A DNA stretch of 64,000 bases from an uncultured Thermoplasmatales archaeon (GCA_964481275.1 CAYZTD010000001.1:50989-114988); one strand, 5' to 3'; positions 1-15,000 are shown, numbered from the stretch's first letter. Program-made: the numbers.

Positions 1-3000
1 AAAAAAGAAAAAAAATAAAAATATTTTTTAATTTTTCTCTATAATTCAATTTTGAATGGTATTATATCAATGTAGTCTGCTTTTTCTTGGTATAGATAAA
101 GATTACAGTTATATGTGCCTTTTTCAAATGTTCCTGAAGAAGCCTTATCTAATTTTATATTCACATCTCCAGTAAACTTATCACCTGTTGCAAGATTTTC
201 TATGAAATAACAATCTCCATAGCTTGTATATTTACAGTTATAGAATAATTTCTTTGATAGGCTTCCTATGTCTATACTAACTTCAACTTCTTCTAACGAG
301 ATAGCCTCATCAAGCCCTTTTTCTTCTGTTAGAGGATTGTATAAAGTAATATACATATTTCTTGCAGTAATATTATCTTTATTTTGTATTACAATTGAAC
401 TGCTTTCACTTATCTCTTCTGATACTCCTCCAGATGAATCTACATTTGAAGAATGATTAATATCAGATATATTTGAAATTTCTAAATTAGCATTATGTAT
501 TGGTGGTTCATAATCAATTCCTAAGAAATCAATTAATACACTTTTTGCTATTTTTTGAATGCTTTCAGGCCATTCCAACCAGTTTTCATCAAGCCAATCA
601 GTTATTTTATTATCAATATTTAAGTATCCTAAAGCTATCCAGATTACGGCTACTGTAGTTGGTAAAAAAAATACAGAAGCTCTTGCCTGTTGATAAAACA
701 TTTCTGGCTCGCTTTTTTGCATTTGTAATCTTGCAAATTGATATACTGAATTTCCTGCTTCATCAGTTACCGTTAACTCTGCAACATAATTACCATTACG
801 CCAAAATTTTTTAGAAAAACTTTTTTCATTATAAGTTTCTACATTTTCCCAACCAAAAAAAGCGGGATATCTTAATGTCCATTCATATTCTAATTCGTCT
901 CCTTCTGGATCAAAAACTTGCGCATCAAAATTTACTGTTTCAGGTCTAAAAGCAGTGTTTTTACTAAGTATGATTTTTACATCGGGTGGATTATTTTTAA
1001 GAACCGTTATGTTAAAACTGTCTGTTTTTTCCACATTTTGATCTTTTACTTTTAATTTACAATTATAAGTCCCTTCTTTTGTGTAAACATATGTTGGGTT
1101 TTTTTCAGTAGATGTATTACCGTCTCCAAATTCCCAGAAATATTCAGGTTTGCCTTTTTCATTTAAAATTAAAGGTTTAAAATTCACTGAAAGTGGTGCT
1201 GTTCCTGAACTAGCATCAGATAGAATATTGATAAAAAGAGATTTTTCATCCGCATCTTTTTTTGGCATACTTTCAACTTGATATTTTAAAGATATAAAAG
1301 CTATTGATAGTATTATAATTCCAGCTACTAATATTGTCAATATCTTTTTTATGTTTTTTTGGTTCATGTTTATATTTATAAATCTGTAAATATATAAATC
1401 TTATAGAACAATATTCCTCAGGTTTATACATATAAAAGGAAGGTGGGCATAAAACAGAAAAATTAAAAAATGAAAGTAGGTATAATTACTTATTAACAAT
1501 TCTGTTTCAGATCCAATTATTCTTAGAAATCTCATTACATTTAATATTTATAGTCCAATATTCCTCAAGGATAGAAAATTTAAGAAATATTAAGTAATAA
1601 GAATTTTATTATCTCTGATAAAATTGGAAAACACTCTATAATTTTATTTGGAAAATTTGGAAAAATTGGTAATATTTCTTTAGTTGCAGATTTAGTTGTT
1701 TTCGGAGAAAGGTACAATGAACTTGATATTTCTTTACTTTCAGCACCGTGTTCATCTTTTACATTTACTGATACAGTAACATAAACAAAAGTCGGGAAAC
1801 CTGTTTGCGGATCAATTTCTAATTTGTCTCTTATATATATTTCGTTACTCCATGTATGAATTGCACTTACATTTTCCCCTGATTCAAATGGACCTAACCA
1901 TCTGCTATCTTCTAAAATCCATCTAATTGGTATATTATGAAAACCATCACATTCTACATAATCAAAATAAAACTGATAAAATACCTTATCTCCATCTGGA
2001 TCTGTAGTGCTACTAGTATATTCATATGGTGTATTTGGTTTATATTTATTTTCTCCAAATGGTTTTTTTGGTACTTTTGGTCTTTGATTATACTTAATTT
2101 CAACGGAAATTTCCTCAGAAAAATCAGTAAGAACTTGTTTTTTGTCTGTAGCTTTCACTTTTATTTTATAATTACCCGGTTCTTCATAGATATGTGAAGC
2201 AGTTGCTCTTTCACCAGATTCATATGGCCCTGTCCAACTATCTATCTTGTCATCATTATCCCAATCCCAACCGTAATAGATTTTGTCATCATCTGCGTCA
2301 TATGTAGTTGTTGAAAACTCACATGGTGCATAAGTATATGCCTTATTTTCATCAACAATTTCAGGTTTTTCAGGAGCAGCTGGTACATTGTTATCTAGTT
2401 TAACATGAAAATTAACTGCAGGATCTCCGAATAAATTCAAACCAGAGTGAACCATCCTAAAATCACCATATGTTAAAAAATGTAAACAATCTAATTTTGA
2501 GTCTTCATTTGCTTTGCCGATTGAAGTAATGTCCTCGTGAAATACTGCATCCCAGAACTCTCTATTATAACGTTGGGAGGCTCCATAAAATAGATCATAA
2601 AATCCCCAGCCATATCTAGCATTCCACAAACCTGCGAAAGCACTATAATTATTTTTTACAGTCATATACTCACCTATGCAATCATAAGACTTTAGCAAAT
2701 AATTGTAATCATCCAATGCACCTGAATTGCATGCTTGACTATAAATAAAAAAAGGTTTAGTATTTTTAATATCATCTAAGTCATTTGATTTACCACTTAT
2801 TATACCACTTTTTAATTTCCAAGGATGATCAAGTTTCATATTGTGAAATTCATTACCATGCCCGAGATGATTAATTATATGATAATTACTGTTGATTTTA
2901 TCTATTATATCAGATTTTTGCCAACCTGTTATTTCTGGTAAAAGAGGATGAAAACCATCAATATCTCTATCATATAATTTGTCTATTTCAAATTGATTAG

Positions 3001-12000: not shown

Positions 12001-15000
12001 GCTCGCTTGTTTCAGTAATATAATTATTATTTAGTTTCATATCTAAATTTATACTTGAAGCTTGAAAGCTACAAATAATCATTAATATAAAAATCATCAC
12101 TGGGGCAATTTTTGCGTTCATTCTTATCACATCATAATTTGTTTTTTTATTTTACTTTTATTAATATAAATATATAAAATTATTGGAACAATTTTCCTCA
12201 TGTATAGCAATAAAATGAAGTCAAAAACATTAATAAAGAATATACAATAGGGGGGAATGTGGGGAACATTTTGACAAAAAATCAGAAAATTATAATAATT
12301 GGTTGTGGTGCAGGTGGAGGTACAGCTGCACAATTTGCAAGAAAAACAAATAGAAAAGCAAAAATAACAGTTTTTGAAAAAAATTCTTATCCACAATATT
12401 CCAAATGTGGTCTACCATATGCAATATCAGGTGACATACCAAAAATAATGGATTTAATAGAATTCTCAGAAGAATGGTTCAAAAAAGCAAATATACACCT
12501 AAATCTTGATACAACTGTTGAAAAAATAGATATCTCGAAAAAAACTGTTTATGCAAAAAAAGAAGATAAAAATATTACAGAAAATTTCGATTCACTTATA
12601 ATATCTACAGGTGCAAAACCATCTTTTCCTCCAATTAAGAATATAGATCTTAAAGGTGTTTTTTCTCTTAGAACAATTGATGATGCAAAAAAAATCAAAT
12701 CTTTTGCTAAAAAAGATACAAAAGCAACAATCGTAGGTGCCGGACTTATTGGTATGGAGATGGCTGATAATCTTTTTAAAATGGGATTAAAAGTGACAAT
12801 TGTAGAAGCATTAGAAAATATCCTTGCAACAAATCTTGACAAAGATATGTCAAAACTTGTATCAAACGAAGTTCCAGACGAAATAAAAATTTATACAAAT
12901 CATCTTGCAACAAAAGCTGAAGATAAAAATGGAACTATCAACAGTATTGTAATTAAAAATAAAGATAATAATGAAGAACAAAAAATTGAAACCAATCTAT
13001 TAATAGTCGCAACTGGTACTAAACCAGAAACATCACTTGCAGAAAAAATAGGATGTAAAATTGGAAAAACTAAAGCAATAATTGTAAATAATAAATCAGA
13101 GACAAACATTCCTAGAGTTTATGCAGTAGGTGACTGTACAGAATATGTAGGATATATTACAAAAAAACCAATATTAGTTGGATTAGGAAGCATAGTTGTA
13201 AGACAAGGAATAGCTGCTGGTACAAATGCAGCGGGTGGAAAATATGTTCTACCAAAAGGTTTTCTAAATACGTTTACATCAGAATTTTTTGATAAAGAAA
13301 TAGCAGGGGTAGGAGTATCTTCAGCTTGCAGAGATTTAGATTATATCTCTGCAAAATACAATGGAGAATCTCTTCCACATTATTTCCCGGGTGGAAAAAA
13401 AATATCAATAAAAGTTTATGCTGATAAAAAAACAGAAAAAATCATAGGTGCTCAATCTGTTGGTGACAAAGCAGCGCAAAGAATCAATACATTTGCAGCA
13501 GCAATAATGGGAAATTTAGATATAAATACATTTAGAAAACTTGAAACAGCATATGCACCACCAATAGCACCAACTCTTGATGCAGAAACACTAGTTTGTG
13601 ATATTTTAGATATGAAACTAAAACGTAAAAGATAGGATTAAGGTAACTATGAAAATTTTACATACAGCTGATTCACATTTGGGATATGCAGCATACAGAA
13701 AATCCACAGAAGAAGGTATAAACCAACGTGAAAAAGACGTTTACAACGCCTTTGAACAATTTATAAACTATGCAATTGAAAAAAAACCTGATTTAATAAT
13801 TCACGCAGGGGATTTATTTGATTCAGTAAGACCAAACAATAGAGCAATAACATTTGCCATAAAACAGATGGTTAGAATTTCAAAAGAAAAAATACCTTTT
13901 GTTCTTATCTCTGGAAACCATGAACAACCTAAACTAAAAGAAACAGGACATATTTTTAGTGTTTTTGATCACATAGATAATATCTATCCAATATACAACG
14001 AAGAATATGAAAAAATATCATTTGGTATAAATGATAAAAAAATAATTGTTCATGCTCTGCCCCAATGCAATTCCAAAAAAAGTTTTAATGAACAGCTTAA
14101 AAAATTAAAACCAGAAAAAAATGCTGATTACAATTTTTTAACATCTCATGGTTCTGTAACAGGTTTACAAGATTTTACTATGAATGAGTTCAATGAACTT
14201 ATAATACCTGCAAGGATTCTTTCAAGAAGTTTTGATTATATAGCTCTTGGGCACTATCATAGATATACAAAATTAGCAGATAATTCATATTATTCAGGAG
14301 CAATAGAAAGTCTTACATTTTCTGAGGCAAATGAAAACAAAGGTTTTTTAGAACTAAATATAGAAAAAAACAAAATATCAAAAAATTTTATAGAATTAAA
14401 AACTAGACCTATGATTGATTCAGAACCAATAGAATGTTCAGAATTGAAAATAGATCAAATAATGAAAAAAATCAAACAACAGGCAAAAAAAATAAAACCT
14501 AAAGAAAAGACAGTTAGAATAACACTTAAAGATATTTCACCAAATCTCTATCGAAATCTAAATTTTGATGATATAAGACAAGACTTTGGAGATGCGATAC
14601 ACTATGAAATAAAAGTAGATGTAAAAGAAAAAGATACTGCATCGTCTACTTTTTCTAATTCAAAGATAAATGCTTTAGCAAATGAATTTAAAGATTTTAT
14701 TGAAAAACAAAATATTGAAGATAAAAAAATTCTAGCTGATATGGGAATAGGTTATATAGAAAAAATAGAGGCAAAAAAAGAAGGTAAATAATGCTATTGA
14801 AGAATCTTACGCTCAAAAATTTTCGAAAATTCAAAAACATAACTATTGATTTTCCTGATGGAGTAACTGGAGTAGTAGGCCTAAATGGAGTTGGAAAATC
14901 AACTATTTTTGAAGCAATAGCCTGGGTTTTATATGGACCTGTTGCAGCAAGAACATCTGCAGATGAAATAAAAAGACAAGATGCAGATGAAAAAGAAAAC

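Follow-up and report, generated by a model that had tools for sequence, protein, structure and literature searches.

A short conserved element, here called the box, precedes several exported-protein genes of an uncultured Thermoplasmatales archaeon and is probably a factor-binding cis-element that couples many separate promoters. The window analysed is a stretch of 64,000 nucleotides (GCA_964481275.1 CAYZTD010000001.1:50989-114988, ~30% G+C) in which six minus-strand copies of TGAGGAnnnTnGnnC(TATAA) are found, with no further copy in the 64 kb. They stand where an earlier reading of the DNA letters alone (the sequence-only reading) had placed them, as confirmed by pattern searches, shuffled controls and a weight matrix. 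Together with the TATA box that follows it, the box forms a 30-nt module, and the modules c1 to c6 are arranged as follows.

1391..1420, minus: module c1 (box core 1401-1420), box TGAGGAATATTGTTCTATAA, then GA and TATA box TTTATATA; promoter of the PKD-domain gene
1538..1567, minus: module c2 (box core 1548-1567), box TGAGGAATATTGGACTATAA, then the weak TATA-like ATTAAATG; without a protein gene of its own
4488..4517, minus: module c3 (box core 4498-4517), box TGAGGAATATCGTACTATAA, then AA and TATA box TATAAATA; promoter of the C25 (gingipain-family) peptidase gene
6220..6249, minus: module c4 (box core 6230-6249), box TGAGGATTATTGTTCTATAA, then GT and TATA box TTTATATA; promoter of the HELGH (zincin-like) secreted-protein gene
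6980..7009, minus: module c5 (box core 6990-7009), box TGAGGAGTGTTGTACTAAAA, then AT and TATA box TTTAAATA; promoter of the gene for a 221-aa secreted protein
12171..12200, minus: module c6 (box core 12181-12200), box TGAGGAAAATTGTTCCAATA, then AT and TATA box TTTATATA; promoter of the C1 (papain-family) peptidase gene

The number of copies greatly exceeds expectation. With at most three mismatches, the 20-mer TGAGGAATATTGTWCTATAA has five matches in the window, while dinucleotide-preserving shuffles predict 0.08; the core TGAGGANNNTNGNNC has six against 0.19 expected, a count reached in 0 of 100 shuffles. A weight matrix built on 39 copies gives the six boxes 21-37 bits and every other site of the window less than 8 bits, so that the boxes stand apart as a class of their own and do not merge with the tail of the AT-rich background. 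A generic repeat finder, run independently, returns the same boxes as the top direct-repeat families of the window. No Rfam family matches anywhere in the window at gathering thresholds, and the box belongs to no known RNA; a tRNA search found none, and a literature search for the box sequence yielded unrelated primer matches only. The motif is previously undescribed; its kind, a cis-regulatory site abutting the archaeal core promoter, is well known.

The architecture of the module can be written as TGAGGAATATTGTnCTATAA-nn-TTTATATA or, equivalently, as TGAGGAATATTGTnCT-ATAAR-n-TTTATATA. The host is an archaeon, as supported by the Mre11-type and Rad50-like genes and the OapB and OapC genes of the window and by the Thermoplasmatales label of the relatives that carry the box; the last eight nucleotides of the module, TTTATATA, are therefore a TATA box. 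In five of the six window copies TWTAWATA begins exactly 2 nt after the box, the variants being TTTATATA, TATAAATA and TTTAAATA, and copy 2 has the weak ATTAAATG at this place; the same spacing is found in 36 of 51 copies from relatives, the other 15 having a near-TATA there, within about 1 nt. Box positions 16-20, ATAAR, occupy the place of the transcription factor B recognition element (BRE) and fit its consensus RNWAAW. The BRE is 6-7 nt long, with positions -3 and -6 as the strongest determinants of specificity (PMC5512572). In promoters of the same genomes that lack the box, only an A-rich RAAA stands out at -6..-3 from the TATA box, with no preference further upstream; the box adds invariant C-8, T-7 and T-5 together with its 5′ part. 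The family-specific portion is therefore TGAGGAATATTGTnCT, a 16-nt element flush with the upstream edge of the BRE at invariant spacing. Its informative bases span 7-22 nt upstream of the TATA box, and the richest of them (GAGGA, G11 and C14) lie 8-21 nt upstream, outside the BRE. The element is only weakly palindromic (5/7 arm positions); its GAGGA and TGTnC blocks are centred ~9-10 bp apart, about one helical turn, across an AT-rich centre.

Downstream of the TATA box, conservation is limited to the ribosome-binding site (GATGTGATAA or GGGGG) and the start codon. Of the 39 upstream flanks (30 nt each), 27 contain a run of at least five T, compared with 5 of the 39 equivalent downstream flanks. 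A T-rich tract is the expected appearance of an archaeal oligo-T terminator of the preceding gene, so that each box gene seems to form a transcription unit of its own. The distance from TATA box to start codon is 23 nt at c1 and 45-60 nt, with a ribosome-binding site, at the others, which is compatible with transcription starting 22-27 nt past the TATA box; with so short an interval, the c1 mRNA is probably leaderless or nearly so. At the orthologous c1 promoters (L035 5450 and L032 340, where L numbers designate fetched loci) the box keeps an identical 53-nt distance, which holds in three species. The earlier claim that each box lies 35-100 bp before a gene start fails for copy 2 (1548-1567), ~180 nt from the PKD start codon; c2 adjoins the C25 stop codon, 147 nt upstream of c1. 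At the other end of the array, c6 is placed back-to-back with an NADH-oxidase-like gene at 12259.

The module recurs in relatives, the closest stretch to the window among the scanned species representatives, a set without the source genome, having 79% nucleotide identity. Contigs with 100% identity, from the same strain, occur in the samples SRR15425350-53. A scan of one genome per species with the box-plus-TATA pattern gave 28 matches in 24 loci. Seventeen of these fall in six metagenome-assembled genomes (MAGs) labelled "uncultured Thermoplasmatales archaeon", eight of them in a single MAG; the other 11 are singletons in unrelated bacteria and DPANN archaea, approximately a chance number. 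A stricter pattern retrieved seven Joint Genome Institute (JGI) metagenome contigs, one with three copies, and re-scanning all fetched loci with the matrix brought at least 51 distinct copies in ~310 kb, among them the variants TGTGGA, TGATGA and TGAGCA. As a negative control, the box pattern freed of the TATA requirement matched once in each of 120 viral contigs; none of the 120 has a TATA box at +2, and these are chance matches.

Conservation is specific to position. The frequency table includes positions fixed by the search pattern; those that the search left free (6-8, 10 and 12, and for the first scan also 15, 17, 18 and 20) show 77-97% conservation. Full degeneracy at positions 13 and 21, amid neighbours conserved at 90-100%, indicates base-specific constraint and not recent copying. 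At seven orthologous HELGH-gene promoters, whose proteins are 40-80% identical, the module is near-identical amid unalignable upstream and diverged downstream DNA, only the ribosome-binding site and the start codon being alignable besides it. Fixed TATA spacing, the BRE match, position-specific conservation, this footprint, the copies in relatives and the link to signal-peptide genes described below all uphold the proposal of a shared operator/BRE-TATA module.

The window genes that accompany the boxes, and those lying between them, are the following.

39..1367, minus: PKD-domain protein, 442 aa, with an N-terminal hydrophobic segment
1580..4438, minus: peptidase C25 with propeptide and PKD domains, 952 aa from ATG 4438, signal-peptide-like N-terminus
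4553..6163, minus: HELGH protein, 536 aa, secreted or membrane-anchored, without Pfam match
6268..6933, minus: 221-aa secreted protein without family match
8769..9413, minus: tandem winged-helix protein (PF24266 HVO_0163_N, ArsR/MarR-like), without a box
9550..10224, minus: membrane protein, 224 aa, without a box of its own, 70 nt behind the C1 peptidase gene
10295..12121, minus: peptidase C1 (papain family), 608 aa from ATG 12121, signal-peptide-like N-terminus

The expected association of the box with signal-peptide genes holds over the fetched loci. Among open reading frames (ORFs) starting 40-200 nt behind a box, 24 of 26 have signal-peptide-like N-termini (charged residues first, then a hydrophobic stretch), compared with 31 of 89 other ORFs of at least 150 aa in the same sequences (Fisher p = 1.7e-7); the two exceptions belong to the same membrane-anchored family and have mis-called starts. 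Families found behind boxes in the window and in relatives are C1, C11, C13/C14, C25, PKD and NosD/beta-helix. In Pfam, box genes of relatives match C11, C13/C14, PKD and NosD/beta-helix, and most of the proteins have no match. Judging by these sequences, the box set is one of exported proteins, many of them peptidases, and not of peptidases as such. The suggestion that a box precedes each minus-strand secreted-protein gene of the first 12 kb does not extend to 9550..10224, whose product has an N-terminal membrane segment; this gene may be co-transcribed with the C1 peptidase gene.

Several gene starts could be refined. The HELGH gene begins at a TTG (6163) behind a GGGGG Shine-Dalgarno sequence, both kept in orthologs, and the HELGHSLG motif of its product, a putative zinc metallopeptidase, is retained in L016, L035 and L024. 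Three other genes start at ATGs 4438, 6933 and 12121, each after GATGTGATAA and 9 nt inside the listed GTG ORFs. In both clusters of the window, secreted-protein genes repeatedly have GATGTGAT(A/G)A 2-4 nt ahead of their ATG (4439-4448, 6934-6943 and 12122-12131, and likewise before 37717, 41133, 43527 and 48755); this sequence looks like a GGTGAT-type ribosome-binding site and is the reason why ORF finders call a GTG start 9 nt early. Beyond window position 1 lies a 63-aa fragment, a low-complexity tail rich in lysine, for which no match was found.

[quoted passage not shown] The peptidase families of the box genes match those reported for this group (PMC6461988), and we infer that the window belongs in or near the order Thermoprofundales.

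The box probably constitutes the factor-specific part of a composite archaeal promoter. A lineage-specific DNA-binding protein would read the GAGGA and TGTnC blocks and, given that the site is flush against the BRE, would control the recruitment of TFB and TBP. The same factor would co-regulate dispersed genes, namely those of secreted cysteine and metallo-peptidases, of PKD and beta-helix proteins and of many unassigned exported proteins. Positive control, through recruitment, is slightly favoured over repression on the analogy of known sites, because the position of the box and its invariant TATA register suggest a stereospecific contact. Archaeal activators bind just upstream of the BRE, as documented for EarA, the ara-box, Ptr2 and TFB-RF1 (PMC5512572; PMC4158304). 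At activated promoters TrmBL1 likewise sits upstream, while repressors overlap the core promoter or sit downstream (PMC4158304; PMC5512572). The informative bases of the box, which abut the BRE upstream, occupy the place of an activator site.

The protein that binds the box is tentatively sought in the tandem winged-helix protein encoded at 8769..9413, a possibility that its sequence and genomic setting put somewhat below an even chance. The protein matches PF24266 (3.6e-11) as well as HTH_24, HTH_5 and MarR_2, and residues 7-77 match PDB 5DUK (5.9e-15); the closest solved structure comes from the MBG-D single-cell genome SCGC AB-539-N05. A structure model contains two winged-helix domains (mean predicted local distance difference test score, pLDDT, 78.5), and a PDB search with this model returned only generic tandem winged-helix folds, with template-modelling (TM) scores of 0.2-0.3 and no functional assignment. 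Two unlike winged-helix heads on a single chain would suit an asymmetric two-block site. Homologs are rare, with 32 at 45% identity or more among 5.8 billion sequences.

The genomic association between protein and box was examined from both sides. Among loci selected by the box, the winged-helix gene turns up six times (window, L020, L028, L030, L031 and L035). Among loci selected by the gene, a box follows soon after the winged-helix stop codon, and the gene past the box varies from case to case; the intervals are 13 nt in L163, 14 nt in L166, 43 nt in L164, 44 nt in L039/L040, 67 nt in L162 (= L035) and about 100 nt in L031. A convergent Wzx-like flippase gene stands between winged-helix gene and box in the window, L020, L028 and L030; L037 has the same flippase arrangement but only a divergent box. 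One locus with a truncated winged-helix gene has no box. Recognition helices and box variants were compared for co-variation, a comparison limited to a few divergent pairs. A GAACAAT half-site in the winged-helix promoter of the window was considered as a sign of autoregulation and rejected, not being conserved in the L020 and L028 orthologs. More distant PF24266-type tandem winged-helix paralogs also lie near the candidate gene in L036 (9108-9803, minus) and L162 (7827-8525, plus), and L036 encodes an EarA-family protein at 5661-5993. A literature search for HVO_0163 gave one unrelated proteomics paper.

A number of observations weigh against activation of exported-protein genes by this factor. 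The box is no general secretome signal, since other secreted peptidase genes of the window use other promoters: about ten window genes with signal peptides, including C25, C1, S8 and C14 peptidases, have no box, contrary to the idea that one precedes every secreted-protein gene. Much of the adjacency between winged-helix gene and box may be inherited synteny. The two most divergent loci (54% and 63% identity) have only the divergent boxes TGAAAGGATTGTACTATAA and GGAAGTAATTGTTAAATAA before large secreted-protein genes, in which the left half has changed and the right half has not. Only three of the six reference MAGs with a box yielded the winged-helix gene, a shortfall that MAG incompleteness or the search prefilter could explain, and this gene's own promoter contains no conserved box or half-site. 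The weak palindromy of the site also counts against the reading, and to our knowledge no family-specific recognition code is available. Finally, activator-dependent archaeal promoters usually have a weak BRE or TATA box (PMC5512572), and here both are near-consensus, which argues for repression and not for activation; a weak core is nevertheless common but not universal at activated promoters, the fla promoter also having a good TATA box (PMC5512572).

Comparison with characterized archaeal systems helps to situate the box. EarA, a small winged-helix-type activator, is required for transcription of the Methanococcus maripaludis fla (archaellum) promoter (PMC5512572). The likeness lies in a site just upstream of the BRE and in a winged-helix-type factor, here a candidate; yet EarA recognizes four 6-bp repeats at a single operon, whereas the box is one 16-bp asymmetric element in fixed register at dozens of promoters, and EarA belongs to PF07381, the candidate being PF24266/ArsR-like. 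In the case of the arabinose-inducible promoters of Sulfolobus solfataricus, the ara-box lies upstream of BRE/TATA at several unlinked promoters, where regulation depends on BRE strength (PMC5512572). It too is a short consensus element just upstream of BRE/TATA whose factor was unnamed when the element was defined, but phylum, sequence and regulon differ (sugar uptake and catabolism versus exported hydrolases), and the ara-box was defined with expression data, the box being known from sequence alone. The Thermococcales glycolytic motif (TGM, read by TrmBL1/Tgr) is a lineage-restricted element with an in silico regulon, for which an upstream position means activation and a downstream position repression (PMC4158304). 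The box shares with it the quality of a lineage-restricted, regulon-defining motif whose position relative to BRE/TATA is informative. Unlike the TGM, a clear palindrome (TATCAC-N5-GTGATA) whose position varies and may be on either side of the core promoter, the box is asymmetric and always at one position. The NrpR operator, GGAA-N6-TTCC, is located at or downstream of the TATA box. A GGAA...TTC(C) arrangement does exist inside the box, and nitrogen control of secreted peptidases would be physiologically sensible. As an NrpR operator the box was nonetheless rejected, on account of its N5 spacing, the presence of TTCC in one of the six window copies and its site upstream of the TATA box.

The opposite sign of control is doubtful but the likeliest of the alternatives. 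Here the box would be an operator, and a repressor whose footprint covers the BRE would silence the intrinsically strong promoters of costly secreted hydrolases, to be released by a signal such as peptides or a protein substrate. The candidate resembles ArsR/MarR-type winged-helix proteins, which are mostly repressors, and a TATA box TTTATATA with a near-consensus BRE (ATAAR) seems to need no activator. Moreover, the conserved block continues gapless into the BRE, and archaeal repressors occlude TFB and TBP (PMC5512572). Repression, however, needs overlap with the core and not a fixed register, yet the TATA spacing is constant in the window and in 36 of the 51 copies of relatives; GAGGA, G11 and C14 also lie outside the BRE, where known archaeal activator sites are found.

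Some boxes occur in tandem without a gene between them, in the window (c2/c1) and in L035, L032, L163 and L016. L035 and L032 preserve the c2/c1 tandem, and L163 has such a pair again in a different gene setting. Each spacer contains a long hairpin (stems of 10-23 bp) starting at about the predicted transcription start of the upstream box and followed by a U-run, with the following coordinates.

Window 1450-1509, minus: hairpin spacer, folding z-score -2.0
L035 5470-5546, minus: hairpin spacer, folding z-score -6.6
L032 245-320, plus: hairpin spacer, folding z-score -3.5
L163 10708-10775, plus: hairpin spacer, folding z-score -4.8
L016 3929-3990, plus: hairpin spacer, folding z-score -3.7

The window hairpin (1450..1509, minus) is partly decayed in its 3′ arm, and its 5′ arm GGATCTGAAACAGAA starts near the predicted c2 transcription start. 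The arms AGATCTGAARCRGAA and TTCYGYYTTCAGATCT are common to the PKD-gene context and the unrelated L163 context, with a few compensatory changes. An Rfam search with the L035 spacer gave chance-level matches only, and that of the window none at gathering level. Tandem-box spacers may be small box-driven hairpin RNAs.

Boxes also mark the breakpoints of rearrangements. A Logan contig of 1707 nt from another sample (L004, SRR31660264) is 99.2% identical to window 1-1442 and 12167-12362; it joins the c6 box and TATA box straight to the DNA past the c1 TATA box, and the intervening 10.8 kb, with the C1, membrane-protein, winged-helix, flippase, 221-aa, HELGH and C25 genes, is absent at the site. 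The crossover falls inside the common TTTATATATTTA, and an assembler join through a repeat is unlikely because the two sides of the junction share only 12 nt. In L035/L162, other units in another order occupy the same chromosomal slot beside the NADH-oxidase/Mre11/Rad50/Oap genes; the C25 unit is found elsewhere in the array, and a single degenerate box replaces c3-C25-c2 of the window. Nucleotide homology between the window and L016 passes through c3 and ends at its TATA box, with different genes beyond, and a unit present once in L010 is duplicated in L017. Ordinary homologous recombination between 30-nt repeats explains this most simply: as the only sizeable repeats in the gene arrays, the modules would serve passively as crossover points when genes are gained, lost or reordered.

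Two broader proposals draw on these breakpoints. The first, improbable, assigns the module a dual role: docking of a tandem winged-helix initiation co-factor, which would define a "secretome promoter class", and crossover in an integron-like, integrase-free system of promoter-carrying cassettes, by which sediment Thermoplasmatota would exchange exported-hydrolase genes among array positions and strains, some modules driving spacer hairpin RNAs of the same regulon. The second, quite improbable, holds that the box is mainly the recombination site of a cassette system shuffling secreted-protein genes and owes its conservation to recombination or gene conversion. The L004 deletion junction at c6/c1, the displaced C25 unit of L035/L162 with one box at the junction, the arrest of L016 homology at the c3 TATA box, the unit duplicated in L017 relative to L010 and the gene-less pairs with hairpin-forming spacers would all suit such a system. 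As in integron arrays, co-oriented unrelated genes are split by a short element, their content and order vary in relatives, and breakpoints fall at the element. The differences are that each box unit has its own promoter, the box being at the 5′ end and fused to the TATA box, and that the box lacks an attC-like folded dyad; integron cassettes are promoterless and have an imperfect inverted repeat at their 3′ end. A cassette system also agrees poorly with the lack of a strong dyad in the box and with the scanned window ORFs, among which no integrase or recombinase domain was found. Gene conversion would homogenize all positions, yet 13 and 21 vary freely; a fixed TATA register and a link to signal-peptide genes are characteristic of a promoter, and ordinary recombination between 30-nt repeats accounts for the breakpoints.

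The other peptidase cluster of the window is headed by a second promoter family, "box B", a ~45-nt block (ATATATTTATAGAAAwATTTATATAATATTAGATACTATATATAT) with four copies upstream of secreted WD40/PKD, C1 and S8 peptidase genes.

37642-37690, plus: box B copy
43446-43495, plus: box B copy
46304-46353, plus: box B copy
48670-48719, plus: box B copy

Unlike that of the box, conservation of box B reaches ~20 nt past the TATA box, and no copy was found in the relatives' loci selected by the box. A weak fifth copy is seen at 20130-20151 (minus). The sequence-only reading had linked the plus-strand cTGATCCAATATATTTATAG, present as one exact and one 3-mismatch copy in the window, to the box. This kinship is rejected: the motif scores less than 8 bits with the box matrix, its TGATCC part is absent from the other three box B copies, and it is the edge of the box B block, a separate promoter family.

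The existence of two promoter classes also bears on a further alternative, in which the box would be an extended core-promoter element read, in sigma-like fashion, by a paralogous general factor (an alternative TFB/TBP pair or a TFE-like tandem winged-helix protein). The strictly fixed BRE/TATA register, the different conserved class at the head of the other cluster and the presence of RNA polymerase III initiation subunits (TM 0.25-0.30) among the candidate's top structural neighbours are in line with it. It is very improbable, as TFB contacts ~6-7 bp upstream of the TATA box (PMC5512572) while conservation here extends to 22 bp, the structural neighbours are generic winged-helix hits, and no TFB or TBP paralog was found in the fetched loci, which are loci and not whole genomes. 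Lastly, a chance or low-complexity likeness in AT-rich intergenic DNA, or a remnant of recent local promoter duplication, could be suspected in a genome of ~30% G+C where all six copies lie inside 12 kb, and is refuted by the 0.08-0.19 copies expected in shuffles, by informative bases that are G and C, by the unrelated sequences of the genes behind the boxes and by retention of the module across genomes whose proteins are 40-80% identical and whose flanks are unalignable.

Other features of the window deserve mention. Next to the array, at 13.6-16.9 kb, are a predicted Mre11-type phosphoesterase gene and an adjoining gene for a large coiled-coil ATPase (Rad50-like), whose L162 ortholog matches SMC_N and AAA_23. 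The remaining features are these.

16901-19628: GTPase gene and OapB and OapC (origin-associated protein) genes, beside a 317-aa ORF without family match
53513-54886 and 54959-56794, plus: C25 peptidase split over two ORFs, 73 nt apart, with the propeptide and profile 1-242 in the first and profile 269-373 with Ig/BACON-like domains in the second
57803-61096, plus: 1097-aa protein with N-terminal DUF7289, Hint/intein-like matches (AXH, PT-HINT, Hom_end_hint) and a Y_Y_Y domain
62808-63137 and 63363-63692, minus: tandem 109-aa ORFs with identical first codons (ATGAAAAACACTATCAACCGC) and identical 29 nt before their starts

The GTPase/OapB/OapC block, which adjoins the array in the relative L162 too, suggests by its gene content that a replication origin may be nearby. 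The split in the C25 gene could stem from a frameshift or an assembly error or mark a pseudogene, and the tandem 109-aa ORFs look like a recent duplication.

We know of no cultured Thermoprofundales-type archaeon, nor of any account of how the peptidase genes of these organisms are controlled. The box offers a sequence tag that predicts co-regulated exported proteins, including many without a recognizable family, and it is a marker for strain-variable gene arrays. Paired with the 8769..9413 family, it gives a specific protein-DNA combination open to testing in vitro, with no need for cultures. For research on archaeal transcription, where most BRE-abutting sites known to us belong to single operons, it represents a large, many-promoter example of such a site.

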